Translations under genes and position numbers: made by a program
Shown here: piece after piece, positions 3,118 through 63,954 of the stretch
Layout: the number at the start of each line of letters is the position of its first letter
Numbering within the stretch: the stretch's first letter is position 1
Notes under the pieces: model-generated
Told to the model about the DNA's origin: nothing
Databases searched by the model: none
Seen by the model: only the letters and a program-made list of their open reading frames with translations
Source of the DNA: an uncultured Chloroflexia bacterium
GTDB lineage: Bacteria > Chloroflexota > Anaerolineae > JAAYZQ01
Assembly (NCBI GenBank): GCA_963700285.1
Contig: CAVOXA010000001.1
Coordinates: 64,001-128,000, forward strand
DNA: 64,000 bases
Direction of reading: 5' to 3'

Positions 3118-5927
3118 ATGAACCTAGAACTAACCATCAACGGCAACAAGGTAACGGCTCCCGAGGGCAGTACAATCCTCGAAGCTGCGCGCATGGCGGG
3201 CATTCATATCCCTACTCTATGCCACCATCCTGACCTGAGCAATGTGGGCGCCTGCCGCATGTGCGTCGTCGCGGTAGAGAGAGCGCGGACCCTGCAAACC
3301 GCTTGTACGACACCTATCGCGGCAGGCATGGTGGTCAACACCGAAAGCGAACTAGTACGTGCAACTCGCAAATTTGTCCTGGAGATGCTGCTGACCGACC
3401 ATCCTAACGACTGCATGACCTGCGAGGTGAACGGCGACTGTGAACTGCAGGATCTGGTTTATGACTATGGCCTCCAGTGGCCCGAACACAGCGGTCAGCG
3501 CCACAACTACGAGATCGATTCAGACCCGAATCCTTTTGTGTTCATCGATCGCAACAAATGCATCGTTTGTGGCCGCTGTATCCGGGCCTGTAGCGAGATT
3601 CAAAACCGCGATGTCTGGAACTTTGCCCAACGCGGTTTTGAGACCAAGCTCGTCGCCGGCGCCGACCAGCTCATGCTCGATGCCCGTTGTGAAAGCTGTG
3701 GCCAGTGTGTGGCCTACTGCCCCGTCGGCGCCCTGTACGACAAGATGAGCCTGGGCCTGGGGCGGCCCAACCAGGTCAACAAAGTGCGGACCACCTGCTC
3801 CTACTGCGGTGTGGGCTGCACTTTTGATCTGAACGTGCGCGACGGCAAAGTTGTGCGCGTCACCAGTTCCGAGGATGCGCCGGTCAACGGCATGTCGCTC
3901 TGTGTCAAAGGCCGCTACGGTTACGACTACCTACACCACCCCGACCGCCTGACCCGGCCTCTGGTGCGGGCCAAGTGGTTGGATGGTGCCGAAGAGAGGT
4001 TGGCAAGCGGCGAGTGGCGAATCGTCGACTCCCAATCCACAACCCCCACGCCAGACGATATGGTTGAAACTGACTGGGATACCGCGCTGGACCTGGTAGC
4101 CAACCGCTTCGCCAAGGTCAAGCAGGAACATGGCAGCGATGCCTTTGCCGTGCTGGCTTCGGCCAAGTGCACCAACGAGGAGAACTATCTCTTTAACAAG
4201 TTCACGCGACAGATCCTGGCGACCAATACCATCGACCACTGTGCCCGTCTCTGACACAGCGCTACTGTCACCGGTCTGGTGACAAGCTTTGGCAGCGGTG
4301 CGATGACCAACTCCATCCGCGACATCGTCCAGGAGAGCGAGTGTTTCTTTATCATCGGCAGCAATACCACCGAGCAACATCCCGTCATCGGGACCAAGAT
4401 CCGGCAGGCGGTGCGGTACCGCGGAGCAAAGCTCATCGTGGCCGACCCCCGTCGCATCGACATCGCCGGTTATGCCGATCTGTTTCTGCAGCACAAGCCG
4501 GGTACCGACATTGCCCTGCTCAACGGCCTAATGCACGTCATTCTTCGTGAAGGTTGGCAGGACGAGGCATTTATCGCCGAGCGAACTGAAAATTTCGAGG
4601 CCCTCAAAGCTACCATCCAAGAGTACACCCCTGAGGTGGCCAGCCGGATCTGCGGCGTACCAGCCGAAGAGATCGAGAAGGCGGCCAGGATGCTGGCCGA
4701 AAACCGGCCCGGCTCCCTGCTATACTCGATGGGTATCACCCAGCATACCGATGGCGTGGCCAACGTGATGAGCTGCGCCAACTTGCAGATGCTGCTGGGA
4801 AATATGGGTGTGCCCGGGGGCGGCGTGAATCCTCTGCGCGGCCAAAACAACGTCCAGGGCGCCTGTGATATGGGGGGCTTGCCCAATGTTTACCCCAGCT
4901 ACCAACCGGTGACCTCTCCCCCGTCCAGAAAAAATTCGAGGAAGCCTGGGGCGTGCCCCTGTCGAATCGGGTCGGGCTGACCGTCACCGAGATGCTTCAC
5001 GCTGCCGAGGCAGGAACCGTGCGCTGCCTGTACGTCATCGGCGAGAATCCCATGACCAGTGACCCAGACCTGAATCACGTGCGCCATGCCCTCCAAAAAA
5101 CAGAGTTTCTGGTGTTGCAGGACATCTTTGTAACCGAGACGGGCCCCTTTGCCGACGTGATTCTGCCAGCAGCCAGCTTTGCCGAAAAGAACGGTACCTT
5201 TACCAACACCGAACGGCGCGTGCAGTTGGTGCGCCGGGCCATCGATCCGCCCGGCGAGGCCCGCTCAGATTCCTGGATCGTCACCGAACTGGCCCGGCGC
5301 TTGCTCGAACTCGGGGCGGCAATACCTGACCCGGAGGCGCCCCATGCCGGTTGGGACTATGCCTCCACCACTGACGTGCTGGTCGAGATCAACGCCCTGT
5401 CGCCCATCTATGCCGGCATCACCCCCGAGCGGCTGGCCATGGGCGAACAGCTCCAGTGGCCCGTGCCCAGTGCCGATCACCCCGGCACACCCATTCTGCA
5501 TGTGGGCAGATTCAGCCGCGGGGTGGGCCGCTTTGCCGCGGTGGATTATACGGAACCAGATGAACTGCCCGACGACGAATACCCGCTGATGATGACCACC
5601 GGACGCGTGCTTTATCACTGGCACGGCGGTGAGATGACACGCCGCGCTCGCGGTCTGGAGGAGGTTTATCCGGAGGCGCTAATCGAAATCAATCCCCATG
5701 ATGCCCACAAAGTAGGGATCATGGACGGCAACATGATGAAGGTCACTTCGCGCCGGGGCGAGATCGTGGCCAAAGCCGAGGTGACCGACCGGGTGGAGCC
5801 GGGATTGATCTTCTCCACCTTTCACTTCCCCGACTCGGCGGCCAACTTCCTGACCAACCCGGCCCTGGACCCAGTGGCCAAGATCCCCGAATTCAAGGTC
5901 TGCGCTGTCAAGGTGGAAGCCGTATAG
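3118..5927 (+). CDS. fdhF: Selenocysteine-containing formate dehydrogenase alpha subunit (N-terminal NuoG-like Fe-S module); UGA=Sec at 4252-4254; one frameshift near 4920
   Basis: [21 protein letters not shown] active-site motif, [14 protein letters not shown]-terminal [10 protein letters not shown]; frame change in C-run before [10 protein letters not shown]. Confidence 0.92.
4255..4300 (+). promoter_or_regulatory. Bacterial SECIS element
   Basis: Hairpin TGTCACC-GGTCT-GGTGACA (4266-4284) starting 12 nt after the UGA; GGUCU apex resembles the E. coli fdhF SECIS. Confidence 0.85.
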
Positions 5928-49928: not shown

Positions 49929-51697
49929 GGAGTACCCTTGGGCGACTGCTTCGGATGGCTGCCCCTTTCTGGCAGAGGATGGCACTGGCGGCGCTGTTGG
50001 GCTTTGCCACCATCAGCAGCAGCATTGGATTGCTGACAACGTCCGCCTATTTGATCTCCAAAGCTTCGCTCCAACCCTCTATCGCCGAACTACAGGTGGC
50101 CATCGTCGGCGTACGCTTTTTTGGCATCGCCCGCGGGGTCTTTCGTTACCTGGAGCGCTACGCTTCCCACGATGTGACCCTGCGCCTTCTGTCCAGGCTT
50201 CGCGTCTGGTTCTACACTGCATTGGAGCCATTGGCTCCAGCCCGGCTCATGCAATACCACAGTGGCGACCTGTTGACCCGCCTCGGAGCAGATATCGAGA
50301 CGCTGGAGAATCTCTACCTGCGGGCCATCGCCCCGCCGGTTGTGGCGGTACTGGCGGCCGTGTTGGCGGCAGCGATCATGGCCAGTTTTTCCCCAAGCTT
50401 GGCGCTAGCGCTGCTGTTCTTTTTCCTGCTGGCCGGGGCTGGTGTGCCACTGCTGGCGCGGGTACTGGGCCGCGGCCCAGGGCAGCAACTGATCCGGGTA
50501 CGCGCCGAATTGAACAGCACGTTGGTGGATGGCATCCAGGGCATGGCCGATCTATTGGCCTTTGGCCAGCAGGAGCGCTACCTGGGCAGGGTGGCGGATC
50601 TTGGCCGGCGTCTGGGCGATGCCCAGCGACGTATGGCCCGCGGCGGCGGGCTGCAGAGCGCGTTGATCGGCCTGCTGATGAACCTGGCGGTTCTGGCCGT
50701 GCTGGTCGTCGCCATCCCGCTGATCCGTGCCGCTCAACTCGATGGGGTGTATCTGGCCCTGCTGGTGATGGCCGTGATTGCCTGCTTTGAGGCAGTGCTG
50801 CCGTTGCCCCAGGCGGCCCAATACCTGGACAACAGCCTGGAAGCAGCGCGGCGATTGTTCGAGATCGTGGATGTGGATCCGGCTGTCGTCGATCCTCGAC
50901 TGCCACTGCCTGCTCCTGATGGGTATGGGCTGCGGGGCGCGGATCTCCGCTTCGCCTACAATGAAGGGGAGCCTTTGGCTGTGGACGGCATCGGTTTTGA
51001 CCTGCCGCAGGGCAACTGCCTGGCCATCGTCGGACCCAGTGGCGCGGGCAAGTCGACGCTGGCCCACTTGATACTACGCTTCTGGGACTATAACGAGGGA
51101 ACCATCACCCTGGGCGGCAAGGACCTGCGCCAACTTGGCCAGGAGGATGTACGCCATCTCATCGCCGTGGTGTCGCAACATACCCATCTCTTTGGGGCCA
51201 CTGTGCGGGAAAACCTGCTTCTCTCCAGGCCAGAGGCCACCGAGGCGGAGATGATCGGGGCAGCGCAGCAAGCGCAGGTCCACGAATTCATCCGATCCCT
51301 GCCCCAGGGCTACGATACCTGGATCGGCGAGCAGGGCTGGCAACTGAGCGGCGGCGAGCGCCAGCGACTGGCTATTGCCCGTGCCATCTTGAAGGATGCC
51401 CCTATCTTGATCCTGGACGAGCCGACGGCCAACCTGGACAGCGTGACCGAGCGCGAGGTAATGAAAACCCTCCTGTCCCTCAGCGCCGAGCGCACGACGT
51501 TGCTCATCACCCACCGGTTGGTGGGTCTGGAACAGGCCGACGAGATCCTGGTGCTGCGGGGTGGGCGCGTCATAGAGCGGGGCAGCCATCACGACCTGGT
51601 TCAGATGCAGGGATTCTACCAGCGCATGTGGGACATTCAGAATCAGAGGCTGGCTGCCAGCCAGCCTGCCCGGGCCAAAGCACCCGCAATACTTTGA
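49925..51697 (+). CDS. cydC: Thiol-reductant ABC exporter CydC
   Basis: VRFFGIARGVFRYLERYASH, GPSGAGKS, LSGGERQR. Confidence 0.9.
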   Translation: MRSTLGRLLRMAAPFWQRMALAALLGFATISSSIGLLTTSAYLISKASLQPSIAELQVAIVGVRFFGIARGVFRYLERYASHDVTLRLLSRLRVWFYTALEPLAPARLMQYHSGDLLTRLGADIETLENLYLRAIAPPVVAVLAAVLAAAIMASFSPSLALALLFFFLLAGAGVPLLARVLGRGPGQQLIRVRAELNSTLVDGIQGMADLLAFGQQERYLGRVADLGRRLGDAQRRMARGGGLQSALIGLLMNLAVLAVLVVAIPLIRAAQLDGVYLALLVMAVIACFEAVLPLPQAAQYLDNSLEAARRLFEIVDVDPAVVDPRLPLPAPDGYGLRGADLRFAYNEGEPLAVDGIGFDLPQGNCLAIVGPSGAGKSTLAHLILRFWDYNEGTITLGGKDLRQLGQEDVRHLIAVVSQHTHLFGATVRENLLLSRPEATEAEMIGAAQQAQVHEFIRSLPQGYDTWIGEQGWQLSGGERQRLAIARAILKDAPILILDEPTANLDSVTEREVMKTLLSLSAERTTLLITHRLVGLEQADEILVLRGGRVIERGSHHDLVQMQGFYQRMWDIQNQRLAASQPARAKAPAIL

Positions 51698-51722
51698 CAC
51701 CCAGCCCATTTCATGTTACAAT
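51694..51722 (+). promoter_or_regulatory. Sigma70-type promoter of the ECF/Tup operon
   Basis: TTGACA-17 nt-TACAAT with TG extension. Confidence 0.8.
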
Positions 51723-51765
51723 TTTCACAGTTCCTTAAACAAGCAAGTGAAATAGCGGGTTTGTA

Positions 51766-51870
51766 GCATCTCCGAGCCTCGCCGCCTAAGGGTCCGAGTA
51801 GGCCTATGGGGTGAGGCCGGTAGGGTCTAGCTGGAAACGGCTATGCCTCCCACGCTTGGAAAGGAGATGC
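51766..51870 (+). ncRNA. Moco/Wco (molybdenum/tungsten cofactor) riboswitch
   Basis: P1 GCATCTCC/GGAGATGC; conserved CTCCGAG, CCTAAG, TATGG, GGAAAC, GCCTCCC, TTGGAAAGGAG blocks. Confidence 0.88.
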
Positions 51871-51889
51871 GCCCAGGGTAGTCAGGGCG

Positions 51890-51979
51890 CGGCGTCTCCA
51901 TGAGACGCCGTTTTTGATCGCCCAGGTTGTTGGATGACCTACAGTGGCGTCTCTTTACCTCCGAGACGCCGCTTTTTTT
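51890..51979 (+). terminator. Two tandem intrinsic terminators (riboswitch expression platform)
   Basis: CGGCGTCTC-CAT-GAGACGCCG-T5 and AGTGGCGTCTC-9 nt-GAGACGCCGCT-T6. Confidence 0.8.
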
Positions 51980-52019
51980 GTGCCGGTACGAGGAACCTGC
52001 CTGCAAAAGGAAGAACAGG

Positions 52020-53381
52020 ATGGATCAAAGACGATACTATTTTTCTACGCGTGATCTGTTGATGATGGCTGCTCTGGCCGCCTTGGGCGGGGTGACCAGC
52101 ACCTACGTCAACGCCATCGGGGATCTCTTTCAGTCCGTTACTGGATTTGCCGGAACCACCCAGTGGGCCGCCGGCTTGCACGTCCTGTGGTTGACCCTGG
52201 CCGTGGGGCTGACTCGCAAGCAGGGGGCCGGTACCATCACCGGGCTGCTCAAGGGAGGGGTTGAGCTCCTTACCGGCAACACGCACGGCTTGTTGGTTGT
52301 GCTGGTGGATGTCGTGGCCGGCTTGCTGGTGGATCTAGGTTTCCTCCCTTTCAAAAAGAAGGACTCCCTGGCGGCCTACTGCCTGGCCGGAGGACTGGCC
52401 TCGGCCTCCAATGTGTTCGTCTTTCAGCTCTTTGCCTCGGTGCCCGCCGACACGCTGGCCTACTGGGCGCTGCTCTTGGTGGCGGCGGTGGCTTTTCTGT
52501 CTGGGGTGCTGTTCGCCGGGGTCCTGGCCCGAGCGCTGGTCAGTACCTTGCGCCGGGCAGGCGTAGTCAAAGACAGTTCTCCGGTCCCAATGAGCCGCAA
52601 AGCCTATCCCATCTTTCTGGTGGCCGGCACCCTGCTGGCAGTGGCTCTGACCCTATTCTTGCGACAGGCGCTGCGTGGTCCGACGACGGTGTACGTCGGT
52701 GGCGCGGTGGAGGCTGCCTACGACTATCCCCTGGAGAACGACGATATCGCGGAGGTCACCACCGAGGGTACACTGCGGAGTGTCACGACCAACTACACAG
52801 GCATACCGGTCCGTGAGCTCGTCGCCCGGGCCTTGCCGCGGCCCGGCGCTGCGCTGCTTCTGCTCCAGGCCTCCGATGGCTATGCCTTTTTCGTCAGTAT
52901 GTTGGAGGTGGACGAGAACGGCAGCCTGCTGCTGGCTCCGCAGGGCGAGGGCGAAGACGCTTCCTATAACGTGGTTGGAGCGCGAAACAGCAAGGCCTGG
53001 GTGCGGGGTGTCAGCGAGCTGGTTGTGATCGGCACGGCGACCCTGGAAGTGAGCGGCGCATTGGAGCAACCTGTACCCTTTGATCCAGATGATTGGCAGT
53101 TCGAGATGGACAGCATCCTCCTCAAGATAAGCGACAGCCCGCAAAAGTACCAGGGGGTTCCTCTGGGCAAGGTGTTGGGGGCAATGGAGCCACGGCCTGA
53201 GGCAGAGACCGTGGTGCTGGGCACAGAGGATGGGCCGGCCTCGCTTCCTCTGGACAAGGTACTAGGCGACGATAACCTGCGTCTATTCACCGTAATTGAT
53301 GGGGATCTGGTTTCCTTTGCCGTCGCTACTATGGACGGCGAGGTGATTGCCGCGCCGATAGTGTCCATCGAGGTGCGGTAG
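52020..53381 (+). CDS. ECF transporter S component fused to two molybdopterin-oxidoreductase-like domains
   Basis: FSTRDLLMMAALAALGG S-component start, about 6 TM plus an extra TM; YTGIPVREL, ASDGY, WVRGVSEL, YQGVPL. Confidence 0.78.
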   Translation: MDQRRYYFSTRDLLMMAALAALGGVTSTYVNAIGDLFQSVTGFAGTTQWAAGLHVLWLTLAVGLTRKQGAGTITGLLKGGVELLTGNTHGLLVVLVDVVAGLLVDLGFLPFKKKDSLAAYCLAGGLASASNVFVFQLFASVPADTLAYWALLLVAAVAFLSGVLFAGVLARALVSTLRRAGVVKDSSPVPMSRKAYPIFLVAGTLLAVALTLFLRQALRGPTTVYVGGAVEAAYDYPLENDDIAEVTTEGTLRSVTTNYTGIPVRELVARALPRPGAALLLLQASDGYAFFVSMLEVDENGSLLLAPQGEGEDASYNVVGARNSKAWVRGVSELVVIGTATLEVSGALEQPVPFDPDDWQFEMDSILLKISDSPQKYQGVPLGKVLGAMEPRPEAETVVLGTEDGPASLPLDKVLGDDNLRLFTVIDGDLVSFAVATMDGEVIAAPIVSIEVR

Positions 53382-53397
53382 GCTGTCTGGAACTCTG

Positions 53398-54870
53398 GTG
53401 GCTGTGGCAAAGATGATCGCCATTGAGGGGTTAAGCTACCGTTTTGAGGGCGGTAGGCGCGACGCCCTGTGCGATGTGACACTCTCGATCGTGCCAGGGG
53501 AATTTGTGGTTGTTACCGGGCCGTCGGGATGTGGCAAGTCGACCCTGGCCCTGGCCATTGGCGGCTACCTCTTTCGCCAGTATGATGGCCAGGCCAGCGG
53601 TACGGTGACTGTGGCTGGCATGGATGTGCAGGAACGTCCCATCTACGATGTGGCCGAGATCGTCGGATTGGTACAGCAGAATCCCGAGGCCCAGTTCTGC
53701 ACGCTTACGGTGCGGGACGAGGTAGCCTTTGGCCTGGAGAACCGATGCCTGCCCCGCGCCGAGATCCAGGAGCGCATCGCCTGGGCGCTGAGCATCGTCG
53801 GTGCGGAGCATCTGATCGAACGTTCTCTAGCAACTCTCTCGGGTGGGGAGAAGCAAAAAGTTGCTATCGCGGCCATGATGGCGGCCAAACCTCAGATTCT
53901 GATCTTTGACGAGCCGACCTCTAATCTGGATCCCTCGGCGACGGCCGAGGTGTTCGAGGTTATTGCCCACATCCGGGCCAAGGCTGGCATTACCGTACTG
54001 GTCATCGAGCACAAGGTGGACTATTTGCTATCCTTCGAGCCGCGGCTGCTGGCGATGGACGCCGGGTGCGTCGTCTACGATGGACCTTACGAAGGCTATG
54101 CCCGCCCCCTGGTCGGGCGGCCCAAGCAAGCGCTCCCCGTGCCTGACACTGGAGGGGAGCCGATCGTGCGGTTGCAGGGTGCCTGCCTGGGCTACAAGGG
54201 CCGCTCTGTGCTGAGGGATGTCTCCCTCGGCATCTGGCCGGGAGAGTTTGTGGCCGTGATGGGTGACAATGGTTCGGGCAAGACTACGTTTGTGCAGAGC
54301 TTGATGGGCTTGCTCAAGCCGGTGGAAGGCCGGGTCGAGGTTCTGGGCCAGGATATCCACGAGTCCTCCGTGTCGACGCTGGCCCGGAAGGTGGGCTTTG
54401 TCTTTCAGAACCCGGACCACCAGCTTTTCGCGGACAGCGTCTGGCAGGAAGCGGTGTTTGCCCTGCGCAATTTTGATCTCCTGGATGCTGCGGCCAGGGT
54501 ACGGGTTACAGAACTCCTGTCTCGCAGTGGCCTGGGCGACCGGGGCCAAGACCATCCTTACCGTCTGAGCTACGGACAGAAGCGCCGCTTGAACCTGATC
54601 TCTGTGCTGGGCTACGCGCCGCGCCTGATCTTGCTCGACGAAGTACTCATCGGGCAGGATCCGGACAACGCGGCTTTTCTGCTCGACCTGGTAAGAGAGC
54701 AGGTCGAGCAAGGCAGCGCGGCGGTCATGGTCAATCATGCGCCCAAGACGACCCGGCAGTATGCCAGCCGCGTGCTCTTTTTCGACGGCGGCAACGTTGT
54801 CGTGGATGCGGCTCCAGAGCAAGCTTTCGAGCAACTGAAATCGCTGGGAAAAGAAGCCTATGTCACCTGA
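53398..54870 (+). CDS. ECF transporter duplicated ATPase (A-A')
   Basis: GPSGCGKST, QNPEAQ, LSGGEKQK; GDNGSGKT, FQNPDHQ, LSYGQKRR. Confidence 0.9.
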   Translation: MAVAKMIAIEGLSYRFEGGRRDALCDVTLSIVPGEFVVVTGPSGCGKSTLALAIGGYLFRQYDGQASGTVTVAGMDVQERPIYDVAEIVGLVQQNPEAQFCTLTVRDEVAFGLENRCLPRAEIQERIAWALSIVGAEHLIERSLATLSGGEKQKVAIAAMMAAKPQILIFDEPTSNLDPSATAEVFEVIAHIRAKAGITVLVIEHKVDYLLSFEPRLLAMDAGCVVYDGPYEGYARPLVGRPKQALPVPDTGGEPIVRLQGACLGYKGRSVLRDVSLGIWPGEFVAVMGDNGSGKTTFVQSLMGLLKPVEGRVEVLGQDIHESSVSTLARKVGFVFQNPDHQLFADSVWQEAVFALRNFDLLDAAARVRVTELLSRSGLGDRGQDHPYRLSYGQKRRLNLISVLGYAPRLILLDEVLIGQDPDNAAFLLDLVREQVEQGSAAVMVNHAPKTTRQYASRVLFFDGGNVVVDAAPEQAFEQLKSLGKEAYVT

Positions 54871-55651
54871 CTCCCAGTTTGCCTACTCCCGAATCACCTT
54901 TCAGCCCGGCGACTCTTTTCTCCACCACCTGCACCCACTGGTCAAGGCGGCTTGGTTGCTCTTTGGCACCATCTTTGTCTTTGTCGTACGCAGCCCCTGG
55001 CCGGTGATGGTGATGGTAGCCCTGCTGCTGGTAGCCTTTCCCCTGATCGGTGTGCGCTTGGGGCGGTTGCGCGGGGCGCGGCTGTTCATCACGACCGCGC
55101 TGTTCTTGGGAATCCTTCAGGTCATTTTCCGGCAGGAGGGGGCCATCCTGTTCCAACTTGGTCCGCTGACCGTGACGGCGGGCGGCGTGGAGGCTGGGCT
55201 GTACGTGGCCGGGCGCTTTCTGAGCGTCATCCTGCTCAGCTACCTGTTCGTGCTGACCACTGAGCCCAACGACCTGGCCTTCGCCCTGATGCGCGCCGGG
55301 CTGCCCTACCGCTATGGCTTTACTCTGATTACCGCCCTGCGTCTGGTACCAACCTTCGAGCAGGAGGGTCAGATCGTCTACAACGCCCAACTGGCGCGCG
55401 GCGTCCGGTACGACGTGAGAAGCCCGCGCCGTTTTCTGACGCTGGCCCGCCAGTTCTTTCTACCGCTACTGGTCTCGGCGCTGGGCAAGGTGGACAGCCT
55501 GTCGGTGTCGATGGAGGGCCGCTGCTTTGGAAAGTATCGAACGCGGACCTTTCTGCGGGAAGTTCGGGCAACGTGGCGGGATGTGGTGGCACTTAGCCTG
55601 CTGGTGCTGGCGATTGGGTTGCTGGTGGGCTGGCGGCTGGTGAGTTGGTAG
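54860..55651 (+). CDS. ECF transporter T component
   Basis: SFLHHLHPLVK, ALRLVP, AQLARG and SMEGRC conserved Arg motifs. Confidence 0.9.
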   Translation: MSPDSQFAYSRITFQPGDSFLHHLHPLVKAAWLLFGTIFVFVVRSPWPVMVMVALLLVAFPLIGVRLGRLRGARLFITTALFLGILQVIFRQEGAILFQLGPLTVTAGGVEAGLYVAGRFLSVILLSYLFVLTTEPNDLAFALMRAGLPYRYGFTLITALRLVPTFEQEGQIVYNAQLARGVRYDVRSPRRFLTLARQFFLPLLVSALGKVDSLSVSMEGRCFGKYRTRTFLREVRATWRDVVALSLLVLAIGLLVGWRLVSW

Positions 55652-55690
55652 ATTGAGGACGTGGATACCCGGTACACGGGAGGGGAAGGC

Positions 55691-56614
55691 ATGTCAAAAC
55701 TGTGGTTGGTTCTACTGCTTGTCGGGGCATTGATCCTGGGTGGGATTGCCGTGGCGTTTGCGATGAATGCAAAAGCGATGGCGCCCGCACAGTCAGCGCT
55801 TCACTATCCATGGTCCCTGCTCGCCAAAGAGGCACAGACTATGAATGAGTGTGCCGAGTGCCACGAGACGGAGCATTTCCATACCTGCGCCTCGTGCCAC
55901 GACGACCACGGCTCGGCCGAGATGGCCAATGTGCCCTTTAACGCCCTGGTTCATCTGGCGGGTGATGTGCCTGAAGGCGGCTTTATCCCCGTTAATGAAA
56001 TCGTGCCCTACCGTGAGCAGCCCGGCACCCACGTGGCCCTCCTCGACTTTCTGTCCGCTAAGGGTGTGGACGACTTTGAAAGCGTCACCCTGGCCTCGCG
56101 CGATGGAGGGTTTGTGACGATCGACCGCGCCAATCTGACCGGAGAGGCGTTGTTGATGCCCCATGTGGATGGCATCCGCTTCGCTGCCGAGAACCTGCAC
56201 GTGTCCACGTGGCTCAAGGGCATCTCGCGTATTATCGTCGTGGGCGTGGATCGACCGCTGACGGTCGATGGCTACCACACATCGTTTGGGCGGTTGCTGA
56301 TGGGGCCGACCCGCTCGCTGACCATCGACCAGACCGACGTGATGCTCAAAAGCGAGGTCGATGGCGAGATTCGCAAAGCCAAGACAGCAGGCCGCATCGA
56401 GGGCGTACCTGTGGAAAAGATCGTCGAGGGGCCAGACTTTGGGCAACTGACCGTGTACGCTGCGGGTGGCCAAGAGCACGTCCTCTCGGCCAAAGACGCC
56501 AGAGGTGCGCTCCTGGCCCAACTGCGGGGCCGCCCCGAGGTCGTACTGGTGCTGCCGGAACTGGGCCGGGCAGAGTGGGTAACGGGCGTGGTAGAGATTT
56601 CGTCGGAGGAGTAG
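55691..56614 (+). CDS. Exported diheme (2x CxxCH) protein with molybdopterin-oxidoreductase-like domains
   Basis: N-terminal TM/signal; CAECH, CASCH; SRDG, WLKGISRI, WVTGVVEI. Confidence 0.65.
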   Translation: MSKLWLVLLLVGALILGGIAVAFAMNAKAMAPAQSALHYPWSLLAKEAQTMNECAECHETEHFHTCASCHDDHGSAEMANVPFNALVHLAGDVPEGGFIPVNEIVPYREQPGTHVALLDFLSAKGVDDFESVTLASRDGGFVTIDRANLTGEALLMPHVDGIRFAAENLHVSTWLKGISRIIVVGVDRPLTVDGYHTSFGRLLMGPTRSLTIDQTDVMLKSEVDGEIRKAKTAGRIEGVPVEKIVEGPDFGQLTVYAAGGQEHVLSAKDARGALLAQLRGRPEVVLVLPELGRAEWVTGVVEISSEE

Positions 56615-56617
56615 TCA

Positions 56618-57808
56618 ATGTCCCGTCATCTCAGTACACGGGCTGGTTCACAGTCCAGTAGTAGCGGCGGCGGACAGTGGTCCGCCGCGAGCATTCGAAT
56701 CGTATCCTTGGTTCTACTCGTTGTGTTATCGGGCTGTGGTTCTACCTGGAAAGCGACAGTGGTGGCGCCGGACGGTAGCGACTATTTTGTGGACAGCAAG
56801 GTCCTCGACGGCCTGGCCGACTTTGCCGAGGAAGACAAGGGCATGCCCCTGGAGCGCGTGCTGTACAGTGCGGGGCATCGCGCCATCGAGCACCTCGTGG
56901 TCGTGGATGCCGATGGAGTGCGCCGTGCGTTCGACTGGGCCGATGCAGCAGAAGAGGCATGGTGGCGACAGGATGGACAGATCGTCCTCAACGGTGAGGT
57001 ACTCCCGGCGGCGCGGATGGAGGTCGAGCCGCCAGCGCTGCTAGACCGGGTCAGTGCGGAAATCACCGACATCGCGCCGACGGCGGCTGCCGCCCTGGGC
57101 ATCCCAGCTCCGGTGCAGGCCAGTGGTCAGGCGCTGGATGAAGCTACGGCTGACCAGGTGCTGCTCCTGTTCCTGGATGGTTTTGGTTACTCGCGCTATC
57201 GCGAGGCCCTGGATGGTGGACTTGTCCCCAACCTGGCCGCCCTTGGCGAGCCGCAGGTGGCCCTGACCGTCTATCCGCCTTGTACCAGCGTCGGCTCGGC
57301 GGCCTTGCTCACTGGGGCACAGCCGGAAGCGAATGGGGTGGACCGGCGGGGCATTCGCAAGACAGAAACGGAGACTCTGTTCGATGTCGCCGAGGCAGCA
57401 GGGCTGGACGTCGTTGCCGTTGAGGGCGATGCGCTGGCCTTCAACCTGCGCAATTCAGACATGCAGCTTTCGGGAGACCGGGACGGGGATGGCAGCACCG
57501 ACGACAACGTGCTGGCCAATGCGCTGACAGTGCTGGACGAGGGAATGCCCGATCTGTTCTACGTACATTTTCACGGCATCGACGATGCCGGGCACACCTA
57601 CGGCCCAGGCACGCCAGCGGAAGAGGCTGTCATCCGCGAGGTAGACGCAGCCGTGGGCCAGCTACTGGGGAGGCTACCCTCGGATACGCTTATCATCGTT
57701 TTTGCTGACCACGGCATGCACCATGTGATAGAAGAAGGGAGGCTGGGAAATCACGGGCACCTGATCGAGCGGGACATGTTCATACCCATCTGGACAGTGG
57801 GGAAGTGA
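56618..57808 (+). CDS. Lipoprotein of the alkaline phosphatase/nucleotide pyrophosphatase superfamily
   Basis: LSGC lipobox; FLDGFG, PPCT, HGIDDAGH, ADHG, GNHG metal ligands. Confidence 0.8.
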   Translation: MSRHLSTRAGSQSSSSGGGQWSAASIRIVSLVLLVVLSGCGSTWKATVVAPDGSDYFVDSKVLDGLADFAEEDKGMPLERVLYSAGHRAIEHLVVVDADGVRRAFDWADAAEEAWWRQDGQIVLNGEVLPAARMEVEPPALLDRVSAEITDIAPTAAAALGIPAPVQASGQALDEATADQVLLLFLDGFGYSRYREALDGGLVPNLAALGEPQVALTVYPPCTSVGSAALLTGAQPEANGVDRRGIRKTETETLFDVAEAAGLDVVAVEGDALAFNLRNSDMQLSGDRDGDGSTDDNVLANALTVLDEGMPDLFYVHFHGIDDAGHTYGPGTPAEEAVIREVDAAVGQLLGRLPSDTLIIVFADHGMHHVIEEGRLGNHGHLIERDMFIPIWTVGK

Positions 57809-57894
57809 GGAAAAGGATATACTTGCGACAAGTAAACAGGCGAATATCAAGTGCGCAGCCAAGGAATGAAAGGATCATAAAGGGAGGCAAACAA

Positions 57895-58776
57895 ATGGAG
57901 AAAGTAAGAAGGTACTCTGTGTTGGGTGTGGTTGTGCTGGTAGGGGTTCTGCTGGCCGCGGGCCTGGCGGGCTGTGGGGGTGGCAGTGCGCCTGACGTGG
58001 ACTGGGAACTGGCGGTCAGCGGGGACGTTGCGACGCCTCTGACGCTAACCTACGCCAAGCTGGCCGAGATGCCCCAGACGGACCTGGAAAACATCCTGAT
58101 GGAAAAGTCGGTGGGCGAGGATACGACAGGTTCCTGGAGTGGCGTGGATCTGGCAAAGCTCCTTGAGGATGCGGGGGCAAGCGCCGAGTATGCCAGCATC
58201 ACCGCGATAGCCGCCGATGGCTATGCCGTCGAGATCTCTAACGAGGAAACGCAGGACGGTATCGTGGCCCTGAAGGAGAACGGGGAGTGGATCGCGGAGG
58301 CGGATCCGGACCACGGCCCCATCCGCCTGGTCTTTTCCCATACACCGGCCAACCGCTGGGTGTTCCAGATCCAGGAGATTCAGGTGAATGACATGGCCCA
58401 GGGGGGCGGGGGCATTCCCGAGGACGCAGCGCTCAAGATTACGGGCAGCGTCGAAACCGAGGTGGGATGGGCTGAGGACAAGCTGCGCAGCTTTGATACC
58501 ATCGAGGTTGAATCGACCAACAAGGATGGCGAGACCAAGACCTATACCGGCGTAGCTATCAACGACCTGTTGGGCAAAGCAGGGCCAACGAGCGAGGCGA
58601 CAACCCTAGTTCTGATCGCTGACGATGGCTATTCGGCGGAAGTGGCTCTGGTCGAGGTGCAAGCCTGTGAGGATTGTATCGTCTCCTTCCGCAACCAGGG
58701 CGGCTTTAGCACAGTCCTGCCAGGGTTCCCGGGCAATGCTCAGGTCAAGGGCGTAGTCGAGATCCAGGTCAAGTAG
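57895..58776 (+). CDS. Lipoprotein with two molybdopterin-oxidoreductase-like domains (no catalytic Cys)
   Basis: LAGC lipobox; WELAVSGDV, WSGVDLAKLL, AADGY, HGPIRLV; second domain YTGV, ADDGY, CEDC. Confidence 0.78.
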   Translation: MEKVRRYSVLGVVVLVGVLLAAGLAGCGGGSAPDVDWELAVSGDVATPLTLTYAKLAEMPQTDLENILMEKSVGEDTTGSWSGVDLAKLLEDAGASAEYASITAIAADGYAVEISNEETQDGIVALKENGEWIAEADPDHGPIRLVFSHTPANRWVFQIQEIQVNDMAQGGGGIPEDAALKITGSVETEVGWAEDKLRSFDTIEVESTNKDGETKTYTGVAINDLLGKAGPTSEATTLVLIADDGYSAEVALVEVQACEDCIVSFRNQGGFSTVLPGFPGNAQVKGVVEIQVK

Positions 58777-58786
58777 GAGAGATGTC

Positions 58787-59500
58787 ATCGACGAGATCTT
58801 GAGCGGCCTGCTCGAGGCCATCCGCCTGATTGTCACCCTGGACGAAGCCCTATTCGAGATCATAGGCCTATCGCTGCGCGTGTCGGGCACCGCGCTGCTG
58901 TTCAGCACTGTGATCGGCATCCCACTGGGCGCGGTTATGGGCATGAGCCGCTTTGCCGGGCGCAAAATGGTCATTGCCCTGCTCTACACTGGCATGGGCT
59001 TTCCGCCGGTGGTCGTCGGCCTGTTCGTCTACCTGATGCTGTCGCGCAGCGGCCCGCTGGGGCAACTCAACTCACCACTGATCCCGGCCCTGTTCACGCC
59101 GGCGGCTATGGTCGTGGCCCAGACGATCATCTCTTTTCCGCTGGTGGCCGGGTTCACCATGGCTGCCGTCATGGGCGTGGATCCGGCCTTGCGCCAGCAG
59201 GTCCAATCGCTGGGTGCCACCCGCTGGCAGACGACGGTGGCGATCCTGACCGAGGCGCGGATAGGCGTGATTGTATCGGTCATTGCCGGTTTTGGCAGCA
59301 TCATCTCCGAGGTGGGCGCAGTGATGATGGTCGGCGGCAACATCGAGGACCGCACGCGGGTGCTGACTACGGCCATCGTCCTGGAGACCCGCAAGGGCAA
59401 CTTTGACCTGGCCATCGCCATCGGTGTGGTCCTGCTGGGCATCGCGTTCCTGACCAACGTGGGCATGCTGCGCCTGCAAGGGAGGACGTTCGACGAATGA
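58787..59500 (+). CDS. tupB: Tungstate ABC transporter permease (start ATC 58787 or TTG 58799)
   Basis: MGFPPVVVGL, GFGSIISEVGAVMMVGGNI, TRVLTTAI. Confidence 0.88.
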   Translation: MDEILSGLLEAIRLIVTLDEALFEIIGLSLRVSGTALLFSTVIGIPLGAVMGMSRFAGRKMVIALLYTGMGFPPVVVGLFVYLMLSRSGPLGQLNSPLIPALFTPAAMVVAQTIISFPLVAGFTMAAVMGVDPALRQQVQSLGATRWQTTVAILTEARIGVIVSVIAGFGSIISEVGAVMMVGGNIEDRTRVLTTAIVLETRKGNFDLAIAIGVVLLGIAFLTNVGMLRLQGRTFDE

Positions 59501-60228
59501 GCGACACGGTCTATCGTGTGCAGAACGTCAGCAAAGAGTACAACGGCCGGCGCGTACTGCAGGTACAGGAGCTGGAGATCGAGCGTGGTGAGATCCTTGC
59601 CCTGGTCGGTCCCAGCGGCGCGGGCAAGAGTACGCTGCTGCGGCTGCTCAACTTTCTGGAGCCGCCCACCAGCGGAAGCATTCGCTTCCTGGACGCCGAG
59701 TTCAGCGCCAACCAGCCGATGCCTCTGAAACACCGACGTCGGGTGACAACGGTCTTTCAGCGGCCCCTGCTGCTCAACCGCAGCGTGCAGGCCAACGTTG
59801 GCTACGGTCTGAGCTTGCGTGGTCGCCGCAAATCAAGCGACGAGATCGAGAGAGCACTGGAGCAGGTTGGCCTGCTGCATCTGACGCACCAGCGGGCGCG
59901 GACCCTGTCGGGCGGCGAGGCACAGCGGGTGGCCCTGGCGCGTGCCATCGTCCTCCAACCAGATGTGTTGCTGCTGGACGAGCCGACGGCCAACCTGGAT
60001 CCCTACAACGTGGGCCTGATCGAAGAGATCGTGACCAACCTGAATCGAGAACGAGGTACCACGCTGGTGCTGGTGACCCACAACGTCTTTCAGGCCAAGC
60101 GGCTGGCCCACCGGGTAGCCTTGATGCTGGACAGCCAGATCGTGGAAGTGGCCGGAGCCAGGACCTTTTTCGAATCACCGCAGGACTCGCGCACGGCAGC
60201 ATTTGTGCGCGGCGAGATGGTCTATTGA
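59497..60228 (+). CDS. tupC: Tungstate ABC transporter ATPase
   Basis: GPSGAGKST, LSGGEAQR, DEPTANLDP; follows tupB. Confidence 0.85.
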   Translation: MSDTVYRVQNVSKEYNGRRVLQVQELEIERGEILALVGPSGAGKSTLLRLLNFLEPPTSGSIRFLDAEFSANQPMPLKHRRRVTTVFQRPLLLNRSVQANVGYGLSLRGRRKSSDEIERALEQVGLLHLTHQRARTLSGGEAQRVALARAIVLQPDVLLLDEPTANLDPYNVGLIEEIVTNLNRERGTTLVLVTHNVFQAKRLAHRVALMLDSQIVEVAGARTFFESPQDSRTAAFVRGEMVY

Positions 60229-60267
60229 GGCAAGAAATCCCATATCGCAAGAAACAAGGAGGAAACG

Positions 60268-61582
60268 ATGTCAAAGAAAGCATGGATCCTGTTGAGTGTT
60301 TTCGTGCTGTTGGCGAGCATCCTGGTTGGCTGCGGCAGTACCCCTGAGCCGGCCCAGGCGCCAGAGCCCACTGCTATCCCGCCGACAGAGGCGCCAGAGC
60401 CTACCGTTCCACCGCCGACCGAGGCGGCCGAACCAACGGAGCCAGGGAAGCTGATTCTGGCCACGACCACCAGCACCGAGAACTCGGGTTTGCTGGCCTA
60501 TCTCCTACCTCACTTTGAAGAGGAATTCGGTGTGGAGATAGAAGTCATTGCCGTGGGCACCGGCCAGGCTCTCCAGCTGGGCGAGGATGGCAATGCTGAC
60601 GTGCTGATGGTGCATGCCCGCACCAGGGAGGACGCCTTTATGGATGCGGGTCACGGCGTGCGCCGCGAGGACGTGATGTACAATGACTTTGTCATCGTCG
60701 GCCCGCCCGATGACCCGGCAGGCATCCAGGGAATGGGAAGAGCCACCACGGCCATGGCCATGATCGCTGAAGCCGAGGCTGCCCTTTGTCTCGCGCGGCG
60801 ACGATTCGGGCACCCATACCAAGGAGAAGGCGATCTGGGCAGAGACGGGCGTCGAGCCAGCAGGCGACTGGTACATCTCTGCCGGGCAGGGCATGGGCGC
60901 CGTGCTGACCATGGCCGACGAGCAGCAGGCTTATACCCTCAGCGACCGGGCTACCTATCTGGCCCGCACGCTGGAGGGAACCGACCTGGAGATCCTGGTC
61001 GAAGGCGACCCCATCCTGTTCAATCCGTACGGTGTCATGGCCGTCAACCCGGACAAGAATCCCCAGATCAACAACGAGCTGGCCAACAAGTTCATCGACT
61101 GGTTGGTCTCGATGCCTACCCAGGAAATGATCGGCGAGTTCGGCGTGGCCGAGTTTGGCGCGCCCCTCTTTACACCCGACTCGGTAGCCTGGCGCGAGGC
61201 GCAGGGAGGTGGCGAGGAGCCGGCCGGTGATATGGCCCTCAGGATAACGGGCAACGTCAGCCAGGAAGTTGGTTGGACTGAAGAAGAGGTGCGGGCCATG
61301 GAGACCATGGAGGCAGAGTCTACCAACAAGAGCGGTGAGACCAAGACCTACACCGGCGTGTCTGTGAACAAGTTGCTAGAAGAGGCCGGCGTCGCCGACG
61401 GTGCGACCGCGGTCGTCTTTGTCGCCGACGATGGCTACACCGGTGAGCTGACCTTGGAAGAGGTGCAAAACTGCGCCGACTGTATCGTCTCCTTCCGAGA
61501 GCAGGGGGGCTTTAGCACAGTAATGCCTGGTTTCCCCGGGAACGTCCAGGTGAAGGGCGTGATCGAGATCCAAGTCAAGTAG
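60268..61582 (+). CDS. tupA: Tungstate-binding lipoprotein fused to a C-terminal molybdopterin-oxidoreductase-like domain (frameshift near 60783)
   Basis: LVGC lipobox; ATTTSTENSGLL, VMYNDF, FVSRGDDSGTH after the frame change, YTLSDRATY, LFNPY. Confidence 0.88.
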
Positions 61583-61589
61583 GGGAATA

Positions 61590-61621
61590 GACCTGGCAGG
61601 TATTCTGATACCTGCCAGGTC
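61590..61621 (+). terminator. Hairpin after tupA
   Basis: GACCTGGCAGGTAT-TCTG-ATACCTGCCAGGTC. Confidence 0.6.
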
Positions 61622-61628
61622 GAAACGT

Positions 61629-61657
61629 TTGACGGCTTGCCCGATCCTCACTATACT
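61629..61657 (+). promoter_or_regulatory. Sigma70-type promoter
   Basis: TTGACG-17 nt-TATACT. Confidence 0.7.
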
Positions 61658-61709
61658 GTGCCTGCGCCACTCAGGCGCGCGACATCAGAGCCAGGAAAGT
61701 GAGATTGCT

Positions 61710-62537
61710 ATGAGCTTGAAACGAGACGAGAGCGGCCGGCTTCACATCGACACGCCGCTGATGGCCGAGTCGTTGATGGACAAGAAACTATTGCGAGATA
61801 CCGAGACCGAGACAGTCTTTCGCCCGCTACCGGACCTGAACGTGGTCAAGCTGGGCGGACAGAGCATCATCGACCGGGGGCGGAGCGTGGTACTGCCTTT
61901 GCTGGACGAGATCGTAGCTACTCGGGCTGAGCATCCGCTGTTGATCATGACGGGCGGGGGAACCCGCAGCCGCCATGCCTATGCCATCGCCCTGGATCTG
62001 GACATGCCCACCGGCGTGCTGGCCAAGCTGGGCGCCAGCATTAGCGAGCAGAACGCGTTGATGCTCTCGATCCTTTTGGCGCCGCACGGCGGGATCAAGA
62101 TCGGCCATGACGATGTGGTCAAGCTACCGGCCTATCTGGCCATGGGCATCATTCCCGTGATGCACGCCATGCCACCCTACAGCCTGTGGGAGGAGCCGGC
62201 AGAGCAGGGGCGCATTCCGCCGCACCGCACCGATTCCGGAGCTTTTCTTACCGCCGAGGTGATCGGCGCCCGGCGCTGCATTCTAGTCAAAGATGAGCCG
62301 GGGCTGTTCACCGCTGATCCCAAGAAGGATCCAGATGCCAACTTTATCTCAGAGGTTGAGGTGGGCGAACTGCTGGCCATGGATCTGCCCGATCTGCCTG
62401 TGGAGCGAGCAATGCTGCGCGCCCTGTCGGGCGCGCGCAGCGTGCACGAGGTGCTGCTGGTCAATGGCCGGGAGCCAGGCCAGTTGACCCGTGTACTGGC
62501 CGGGGAGAATCCCGGGACGCGCATTTACCGGGCTTGA
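61710..62537 (+). CDS. Molybdenum storage protein-like (amino-acid/uridylate kinase fold)
   Basis: LMAESL, VVKLGGQSIIDRG, GGGTRSRH, MPPYSLWE, IPPHRTDSG, LFTADPK. Confidence 0.82.
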   Translation: MSLKRDESGRLHIDTPLMAESLMDKKLLRDTETETVFRPLPDLNVVKLGGQSIIDRGRSVVLPLLDEIVATRAEHPLLIMTGGGTRSRHAYAIALDLDMPTGVLAKLGASISEQNALMLSILLAPHGGIKIGHDDVVKLPAYLAMGIIPVMHAMPPYSLWEEPAEQGRIPPHRTDSGAFLTAEVIGARRCILVKDEPGLFTADPKKDPDANFISEVEVGELLAMDLPDLPVERAMLRALSGARSVHEVLLVNGREPGQLTRVLAGENPGTRIYRA

Positions 62538-63267: not shown

Positions 63268-63954
63268 ATGCTCTTCATTGGTTTGGATGATACAGATACA
63301 CTTGAATCCCGGGGGACTGGACATCTGGCCCGGCAGATTGCTGCTACGCTGGCCGCCGACCATACCTTGTTGGGCGTGACGCGCCACCAGTTGTTGGTGG
63401 ACCCACGCGTGCCCTGTACCAGGAACAATAGCTGCGCGGCCATCGTTCTAGATGGGGACGGTGATGTTGATATGGCTAGTCTGCTGGCTCGCGTGTGGGC
63501 GCTGATGATGGATGACTTTCAGTTGGGCAGCGATCCGGGTCTGTGCATCGCCCACACGGTGCCCGATGCCGTCACCGCATTTGGGCGCAGGGCTCAGCGC
63601 CACCTGATCGCCCAGTCTGAAGCACGAAACCTGGCTGCCGCCCATCAGATTCCTCTGTTGGGGCTGGGCGGTACGGAGGATGGCGTGATTGGCGCCCTGG
63701 CGGCCGTAGGACTGGCGGCCAGTGGTGAAGATGGCCGCTACGTCTTGGTGGGCAGCTCTCGGGAACTGAACGGCTTGCGCCCGGTGTCTGAGCTCTTGCA
63801 GGCAGGCATCGCTGTCGTGCAGACCGCGGCCGGTGAACCGGTGCTGGATGGGCTGGTTCAGACTGACAAGTTGCGACCGGCGCGGCGCGGCACCCGCCCC
63901 ATCGCCGTCGTCGAGTGGGCAGGTGACCATTGGTTGCCACTCAAGCTTGACTAG
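63268..63954 (+). CDS. TiaS N-terminal-like (DUF1743-like) protein
   Basis: IGLDDTD, RGTG, RHQL, CTRNNS, SDPGL, GVIGALAAVG. Confidence 0.7.
   Translation: MLFIGLDDTDTLESRGTGHLARQIAATLAADHTLLGVTRHQLLVDPRVPCTRNNSCAAIVLDGDGDVDMASLLARVWALMMDDFQLGSDPGLCIAHTVPDAVTAFGRRAQRHLIAQSEARNLAAAHQIPLLGLGGTEDGVIGALAAVGLAASGEDGRYVLVGSSRELNGLRPVSELLQAGIAVVQTAAGEPVLDGLVQTDKLRPARRGTRPIAVVEWAGDHWLPLKLD

Follow-up and report, generated by a model that had tools for sequence, protein, structure and literature searches.

A riboswitch-led ECF transporter operon of Anaerolineae that probably salvages a metal-loaded tungsten or molybdenum pyranopterin cofactor

The question

Can a bacterium take up, ready-made, the pyranopterin cofactor of its tungsten and molybdenum enzymes? 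The molybdenum and tungsten cofactors (Moco and Wco or Tuco, respectively) have been thought to be made and used inside one cell, owing to their lability, with Caenorhabditis elegans as the described exception (PMC7849362). The question is raised by an operon in a stretch of 64,000 nt from an uncultured Anaerolineae bacterium ('the window' below, within which gene calls and Rfam, Pfam and NCBIfam scans were made). There a Moco/Tuco riboswitch heads genes for an energy-coupling factor (ECF) transporter and for several surface proteins. An earlier note, made from the sequence alone, had proposed that the transporter imports a pterin cofactor, namely molybdopterin (MPT), Moco, Wco or a derivative, while knowing of no characterised ECF transporter with that substrate. 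Searches of the openly accessible literature found none, and no other prokaryotic importer of this cofactor. The proposal is supported and can be refined: comparison of genes and genomes makes it probable that the operon serves ATP-driven salvage of a metal-loaded tungsten or molybdenum pyranopterin cofactor, rather than of bare MPT, and the metal is probably tungsten.

Missing cofactor-synthesis genes in carriers

The survey covered 301 genomes of the class, this host included. Carriers are the 25 genomes with a close match to the membrane part of S, the substrate-specific component of the transporter; two more genomes have distant matches. Of the 301 genomes, 267 gave a moaC match. Those without one are 12 of the 25 carriers and 22 of the 276 non-carriers (Fisher p 1e-6, overstated since kin are not independent), and within the eight families concerned the corresponding figures are 12 of 22 carriers and 1 of 31 non-carriers. 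The 12 moaC-less carriers gave no moaA, moaE or tupA match, and eight of them no moeA match either; another genome, with a fragment of moaC only (G226), is a thirteenth carrier without synthesis genes. The eight fully moeA-less carriers lack any ModA/WtpA-type match at E 1e-25, and in all five of those checked the only MoCF_biosynth (PF00994) match is CinA.

All 13 carriers without synthesis genes keep tungsten-type AOR matches, 3–19 each (matches, not copy numbers); for the 17 non-carriers without moaA and moaC the number is 0 in 13, 1 in one and 4–10 in three. tupA is found in none of these 13 carriers versus 10 of the 12 that have synthesis genes. Twelve of the 13 have a mobA-like gene; G241, which has none, is also the only one with no match to an enzyme with bis-MGD (the bis form of molybdopterin guanine dinucleotide). 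In a tree of 24 S proteins (the sister genome, G249, left out) the loss needs seven changes and does not cluster; well-supported branches force at least four of the changes.

As clustered genes could all vanish by one assembly gap, a gap test was made. In one genome of family f49 (G094) tupA/C/B, tRNA-Sec, the molybdenum-storage gene mosto, moeA, moaE, moaC and moaA lie within about 10 kb. In four carriers (G182, G252, G272 and G207) a single contig runs from one flank of this cluster straight to the other, with 52 bp between them in G182, so the absence at the f49 site is real and not an assembly gap. The internal tRNA-Sec is retained in two of the four (G252 and G207), which points to deletion. 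As a separate observation, the near-complete genomes G076, G144, G110 and G181 and their kin (families f35, f29 and f4) keep moeA and have no moaA, moaC, moaE or AOR match.

The pattern of loss bears on whether the substrate could be a metal-free pterin intermediate (cyclic pyranopterin monophosphate (cPMP), MPT or dephospho-MPT) from which the cell completes the cofactor. cPMP is a stable intermediate and is, according to PMC7849362, taken from the diet by C. elegans; among the 13 carriers without synthesis genes, four retain moeA sequence, whole or partial. The other nine have no moeA match, none of the 13 has a moaE or tupA match, and the eight fully moeA-less ones are without ModA/WtpA. 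With these matches missing, such carriers would be unable to finish cPMP or to insert metal by known routes, and import of a metal-free intermediate is judged unlikely. Salvage of the finished, metal-loaded cofactor would be compatible with those losses.

The transporter

The structural genes form one run on the + strand, in the order in which the earlier note had read them and as tightly spaced as it had described (intergenic gaps from S to tupA, −11 to 86 nt):

52020..53381, + strand, ECF S component: YkoE fold with a seventh helix and two Cys-less sulfite-oxidase/PruR-fold domains (PF09819)
53398..54870, + strand, fused ECF ATPase A-A', above both cut-offs (TIGR04520, 354.5 against 315; TIGR04521, 340.8 against 330)
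54860..55651, + strand, ECF T component (PF02361, E 1e-30)
55691..56614, + strand, membrane-anchored c-type (diheme) cytochrome with CAECH and CASCH (two CxxCH; no Pfam match)
56618..57808, + strand, lipoprotein of the nucleotide pyrophosphatase/phosphodiesterase (NPP) type, alkaline-phosphatase superfamily (PF01663)
57895..58776, + strand, lipoprotein with two sulfite-oxidase-fold domains and no Mo-ligating Cys (2x PF00174)
58799..59500, + strand, TupB-like permease (NF041773, E 2e-45, under cut-off)
59497..60228, + strand, TupC-like ATPase (profile scans)
60268..61582, + strand, TupA-like lipoprotein with a C-terminal PF00174 (sulfite-oxidase-fold) domain, frameshifted (profile scans)

Among 20 full-length loci (four loci ending just after S were left out) S-AA'-T occurs in 20, the lipoprotein in 19, the cytochrome in 18, the NPP gene in 14 and tupBCA in five. 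The S gene thus lies beside its own A-A' and T genes in 20/20 full-length loci, a trait of group I ECF transporters, in which the substrate is bound by the S component and brought inward by the A-A'/T module.

The predicted structure of S (mean pLDDT 79) contains the six-helix S-component fold. Its nearest solved relative is YkoE: residues 7–190 of the predicted model superpose on 5EDL with Z 18.9 and rmsd 3.0 over 179 residues, and the profile match has E 1e-20. The nearness of a thiamine carrier raises a second alternative, that the transporter imports some other organic micronutrient (thiamine or hydroxymethylpyrimidine (HMP), a simple pterin or folate fragment, a corrinoid or heme) and that the riboswitch merely co-regulates it. 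The contacts argue otherwise. Five thiamine contacts are described in YkoE, where W49A removes the binding signal (PMC5037267). Y46, W49, E77, Q95 and D131 correspond to A51, H54, E82, A100 and Q136 in the window S, so that only one of the five, the Glu, is kept; H54, E82, A100 and Q136 do not vary among the 54 close homologs in the alignment (of 120 listed). The result that the earlier note had named as counting against it, an S component falling with a family of known substrate, did not occur.

Other observations fit a micronutrient. Tuco riboswitches do govern transporters of other kinds (see below), and in two of the 20 loci a cobalamin riboswitch (L033:986-1127 and L035:951-1109) adjoins the Moco RNA in divergent orientation. 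In the window cydDC and a cytochrome are adjacent; cydDC adjacency occurs only here and in the sister genome, and cydDC was therefore not counted with the system. In the window Rfam finds RF01055 and tRNAs only, with no thiamine pyrophosphate (TPP) or B12 riboswitch, and import of such a nutrient would leave the enriched loss of moaA and moaC unexplained. This alternative is very unlikely.

The thiamine/HMP transporter YkoEDC of Bacillus subtilis (group I, 5EDL) is among the closest known systems. Both are riboswitch-led operons with an S component of their own, a fused A-A' and a T. The TPP riboswitch that controls ykoFEDC is here replaced by RF01055, the thiamine contacts are mostly replaced, S is fused to an extra helix and two pterin-fold domains, and accessory lipoproteins, a phosphodiesterase and a cytochrome are added. 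By the tests run on sequences and models, this is a group I ECF transporter, but not the YkoE thiamine carrier, a sulfite oxidase (SUOX) enzyme or PruR.

A second dedicated ECF transporter begins in the window (63268-63954) and continues just beyond its end (L150:1026-4435). Its genes encode a TiaS/methanogenesis-marker-11-like protein, A-A', T, a 169-aa anchored protein that matches no Pfam family, and a small S of PF09819. In G249, G179 and G288, too, mosto is followed by the marker gene, A-A' and T in this order.

The surface proteins

The 'extracytoplasmic domains' that the earlier note saw on S are present and can be given an identity: they are sulfite-oxidase folds, which the lipoprotein, the diheme protein and TupA contain as well. 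For domain 1 of the lipoprotein the match to SoxC has Z 18.5 (rmsd 2.1 over 139 residues) and that to PruR Z 16.0, the next unrelated fold being at 6.9; SoxC and SorA are the closest folds. S residues 221–339 of the predicted model give SoxC at Z 14.0 and PruR at Z 12.6. The soluble part of the cytochrome consists of two degenerate domains of the same fold (hhalign to the lipoprotein, probability 92%, E 7e-7). The description of this protein as diheme stands in so far as there are two CxxCH motifs, though only the second is invariant (19/19, against 12/19 for the other). An atlas search with the cytochrome returned only Chloroflexota clusters at 0.97, and PF00174 clusters at 0.75–0.76 as leads.

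There is no Cys in S 219–453, in cytochrome 75–307 or in domain 1 of the lipoprotein, so the Mo-ligating Cys is missing; the only lipoprotein Cys in these domains are C258 and C261, late in domain 2 (a conserved CxxC). What is kept is a near-invariant DGY...W pair, which in the lipoprotein lies in domain 1. The Tyr of the invariant DGY aligns with the pterin-stacking Tyr104 of PruR. The Trp is conserved in 53/54 and 14/14 homologs and probably equivalent to PruR W160; PruR Asn102 is Asp here.

Two known groups come close. The sulfite oxidase family (SoxC 2XTS, SorA 2BLF, MsrP/YedY) is the best structural match (Z 18.5), but here there is no catalytic Cys and no dimerisation domain, and each repeat has about 120–135 residues. 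PruR (7KOS, 7RKB), which binds monapterin and regulates DcpA, shares the truncated sulfite-oxidase fold, the lack of a Mo-ligating Cys, the extracytoplasmic position and the aligned stacking Tyr (Z 12.6–16.0). Unlike PruR, a stand-alone protein, the domains here occur as repeats, form part of transporter subunits and are controlled through a Moco/Tuco riboswitch, and no DcpA-type gene partner was found at the locus.

Another alternative is that the surface proteins make up a module for redox chemistry or sensing (an enzyme like SorAB/SoxCD, or a sensor like PruR) that the ECF transporter serves. The closeness of SoxC and SorA, the c-type cytochrome, the conserved CxxC and, in two loci, a membrane protein with CCG and Fe-S domains between T and the cytochrome all agree with that. 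It is made extremely unlikely by the missing Cys in the extracellular S and cytochrome domains and in lipoprotein domain 1, by the want of a DcpA-type partner and by the fusion of the domains to transporter subunits (S and TupA). The membrane protein in question has 630–640 aa with 4Fe-4S and two CCG domains (L043:8942-10870, where Pfam was run, and the same slot in L042), and its position suggests a redox link.

In the NPP lipoprotein the two-metal ligands and the Thr nucleophile (D187, T223, D322, H326, D364, H365 and H379) are invariant in 14/14 homologs, and its best solved match is the Xanthomonas-type NPP 7MW8/2GSN. An atlas search with its N-terminal part gave no usable match, and an hhalign comparison with the lipoprotein gave a match confined to the signal region.

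The figures for distant relatives refer to the best 80 of 282 metagenome loci, many of them short or apparently archaeal. As in the window, S comes before A-A' and T in these loci, and accessory proteins with the pterin fold are encoded alongside. S is also known with a single such domain, and 2 of 10 of these forms looked up bear the names of Asgard archaeal proteins. A calcineurin-like phosphoesterase, fused to a pterin-fold domain in the examples inspected, is present in 40/80, while a match to the NPP motif occurs in 0/80. As two unrelated phosphoesterases fill the same slot, the comparison argues for a substrate that is phosphorylated or nucleotidylated. In vitro, a phosphodiesterase yields bis-Mo-MPT from bis-MGD and MobA reverses this, and one AOR-family enzyme needs the phosphate (PMC9103625).

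In 33/80 of these loci there is also an APH/RIO-like kinase (e.g. L090:1208-1990), a candidate for a re-phosphorylating enzyme. A phosphoesterase with a kinase resembles salvage by dephosphorylation, import and rephosphorylation, and small pterins would suit PruR-type pockets, as these are described; both points favour the metal-free intermediate. The kinase was not found in the host genome or in the Anaerolineae loci, which speaks against it.

The RNA switch

Ahead of S the earlier note had placed a promoter, a Moco RNA motif and two terminators, and all are there:

51694..51722, + strand, sigma-70-type promoter TTGACA-17-TGnTACAAT with extended −10 TG (11/12)
51758..51882, + strand, Moco/Tuco riboswitch aptamer RF01055 without P3 (73.4 bits, E 8e-16, fold)
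51889..51915, + strand, intrinsic terminator 1 (terminator scan, fold), its 5′ arm being an alternative partner of the P1 3′ strand
about 51943..51979, + strand, intrinsic terminator 2, with the arms GGCGTCTC/GAGACGCC repeated (folds; not called by the terminator scan owing to its 9-nt loop)

The match to the Rfam model, with which the Moco assignment could have fallen, is well above the gathering cut-off (73.4 against 36 bits), with P3 of the model gapped. P1 is formed by 51766-51773 paired with 51863-51870. In the predicted fold of a transcript ending at 51900 the P1 3′ strand pairs instead with the 5′ arm of terminator 1 (−73.9 kcal/mol, versus −68.1 with P1 enforced). With this predicted antiterminator enforced, the 3′ arm that terminator 1 gives up is bound by the 5′ arm of terminator 2, and this accounts for the arms being repeated there. 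A locus of another genome (L016, G269) has three repeated terminators after its aptamer, a longer form of the two-terminator cascade of the window.

The checks that had been proposed on neighbourhood conservation and on co-occurrence with Mo/W genes came out in favour: loss of moaA and moaC is enriched in carriers, and RF01055 heads the S-containing unit in 23 of the 24 other carriers. It lies at most 1.5 kb from S in 21 and before tupB of the same unit in two more; the last locus is cut by a contig end. No RF01055 was found near the two distant, domain-less S genes. Where the lipoprotein gene is on the opposite strand it has its own RF01055, often two, and in five carriers without synthesis genes 12 of the 14 RF01055 matches are at this ECF transporter or its lipoprotein genes. 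In the distant loci the RNA was found in 10/80 by a purpose-built model, with Rfam confirming 4/4 of those checked. P3 is missing in 18/24 RNAs of this system, and P3-less RNAs of this class have been tied to tungsten metabolism (PMC2408646). The only other RF01055 of the host genome (L009:1501-1635, P3-less, 61 bits) is ahead of a Tat-exported formate-dehydrogenase-like gene.

tup, molybdenum storage and a formate dehydrogenase

Homologs of all three Tup proteins are present, as had been said. The best family of TupA is TupA and TupB matches NF041773, both under the NCBIfam cut-offs, and tup varies across loci; the sister genome's locus lacks it. In this assembly the tupA reading frame is broken by a frameshift near 60784. 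Since the formate dehydrogenase (FDH) and moeA genes of the same assembly are likewise split, an assembly error is plausible. Reads of four runs give only short pieces from mixed organisms at tupA, and the one read contig without a base at 60780 has depth 2.3 and 18 further differences, too weak to decide.

Could the ECF transporter import tungstate, molybdate or a small tungsten chelate alongside Tup? The riboswitch is common with tup, tupBCA is joined to the operon in 5/20 loci, the same domain is fused to TupA, and the ECF is kept in carriers without tupA. S components of Ni/Co ECF transporters are, moreover, able to carry metals. Bare metal would be of no use to a genome in which moaA, moaC, moaE and moeA are all missing; S has a fold of the vitamin type (YkoE, Z 18.9); and pterin-fold domains and a phosphoesterase would be pointless for an oxyanion. 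Import of this kind is very unlikely indeed. The earlier note had set it aside on the ground that Tup already covers the oxyanion, which is a weak argument, because tup is in only 5/20 full-length loci and tupA is frameshifted here. The stronger one, by comparison of the genomes, is that carriers without synthesis genes have lost tup too. Homologs of TupABC and of the molybdenum-storage protein lie in the locus; those systems act on the metal by itself, differ in presence from locus to locus and disappear along with the moa genes, the ECF being retained.

The storage-like gene, with a promoter of its own as had been read, follows the run:

61629..61657, + strand, promoter-like site (10/12), downstream of a strong hairpin (−26.9 kcal/mol)
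61710..62537, + strand, molybdenum-storage-protein beta-like gene (252 bits to 2OGX_B)

It is a single beta-like gene; tblastn found no paralog in the genome, so that it does not form an alpha + beta pair.

The selenocysteine-containing FDH that had been named as a plausible client is a real gene: in FDH alpha (window 3118-5927) the TGA within DHCARLU, at about 4252, is in frame. AOR-family enzymes, with 17 matches in the genome, are likelier as main clients than this FDH alone. The FDH alpha gene is split by a frame change near 4953-4980 and lies downstream of a NuoF-like flavoprotein gene.

The host and the proposed route

The host has moaA, moaC, MOSC right after moaC, moeA, a mobA-like gene, a PF13531 binding protein and, besides the AOR matches, seven bis-MGD matches; no moaE match was found in its genome. 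The order moaA-moaC-MOSC without moaE is seen at L148 (G000:C1:1834922-1837020). Host auxotrophy on account of the missing moaE was considered and rejected: moaC occurs without moaE in 68 of the 301 genomes, moaE is found in 0/10 members of family f1, and MOSC follows moaC. MOSC may replace MoaE. As the host encodes moaA-moaC-MOSC and moeA, salvage would be optional in it: it probably makes its own cofactor, with salvage as a supplement for a large demand.

The following route is proposed. When the ligand of the P3-less aptamer is bound it would stabilise P1, and both terminators would form; without ligand the P1 3′ strand would pair with terminator 1, and the arm so freed would block terminator 2. 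Outside the cell the lipoproteins, the cytochrome and S would bind and shield the labile cofactor through their DGY...W domains, in the manner of pterin-binding SUOX/PruR domains, presumably without catalysis because the Mo-ligating Cys is absent. The NPP lipoprotein may strip GMP from a cofactor of the bis-MGD type, leaving nucleotide-free (bis-)W-MPT. By analogy with the family, S would then capture this and A-A'/T carry it in. Within the cell AOR enzymes may take the imported cofactor directly and MobA re-add GMP for FDH-type enzymes; the cytochrome, more speculatively, could keep the pyranopterin reduced. In many relatives salvage would be the only recognisable source of cofactor.

Several things weigh against this route. 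Free Moco is labile (PMC7849362), and the truncated pocket of PruR is stated to be too small for Moco in PMC11194511 and PMC13259868. Synthesis is not lost throughout: 12 of the 25 carriers, the host included, have moaA and moaC, and the retained moeA noted above belongs here also. Three genomes without moaA or moaC (G124, G116 and G174) have 4–10 AOR matches and no S of this family, for which another uptake route or assembly gaps are candidates. All the genomes are assemblies, 88–97% complete; the mobA and tupA matches counted are below curated cut-offs; and the empty site is shown in one family, f49, of the eight. NPP is missing from 6/20 and the cytochrome from 2/20 full-length loci. As to the RNA, the terminated fold is the lower one at full length (−115.6 versus −103.7 kcal/mol), the antiterminator being favoured only in the early transcript, and for that reason the switch would be kinetic. 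Pairing of the aptamer end with downstream sequence is better than in shuffles in 14/25 RNAs, and 6/24 have a P3-like insert. Nor does the RNA alone fix the substrate, because Tuco riboswitches of Eubacterium limosum are also upstream of iron transporters and a FocA (PMC11725836).

Implications

The nearest parallel to such a route is dietary Moco uptake in C. elegans, where ready-made cofactor bypasses synthesis. That case differs in being an animal whose transporter PMC7849362 gives as unknown; it is the only organism described there with such a route, and an E. coli moaA mutant failed to relay protein-bound Moco.

The evidence leans, somewhat less firmly than for import as such, towards the operon being the first prokaryotic system for uptake of the intact W/Mo cofactor, in which surface proteins capture it, a phosphodiesterase brings all dinucleotide forms to a common one and an ECF transporter imports it, with several Anaerolineae lineages independently auxotrophic for what would be a vitamin shared across domains. 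On that reading a bis-pyranopterin cofactor would be released in anoxic sediments, and the whole cluster for synthesis and metal uptake would have been deleted in genomes with up to about 19 AOR-type enzymes; relatives of the system in Asgard archaea and other anaerobes suggest a vitamin common across domains. If this is true, the cofactor is an exchanged vitamin in anoxic communities, which would explain genomes rich in tungsten enzymes and without moa genes. Genome-based metabolic models would then score such enzymes differently, and there would be a hint of what to add for culturing. The small soluble cofactor-binding domains and the transporter would also allow direct tests of how Moco crosses membranes.

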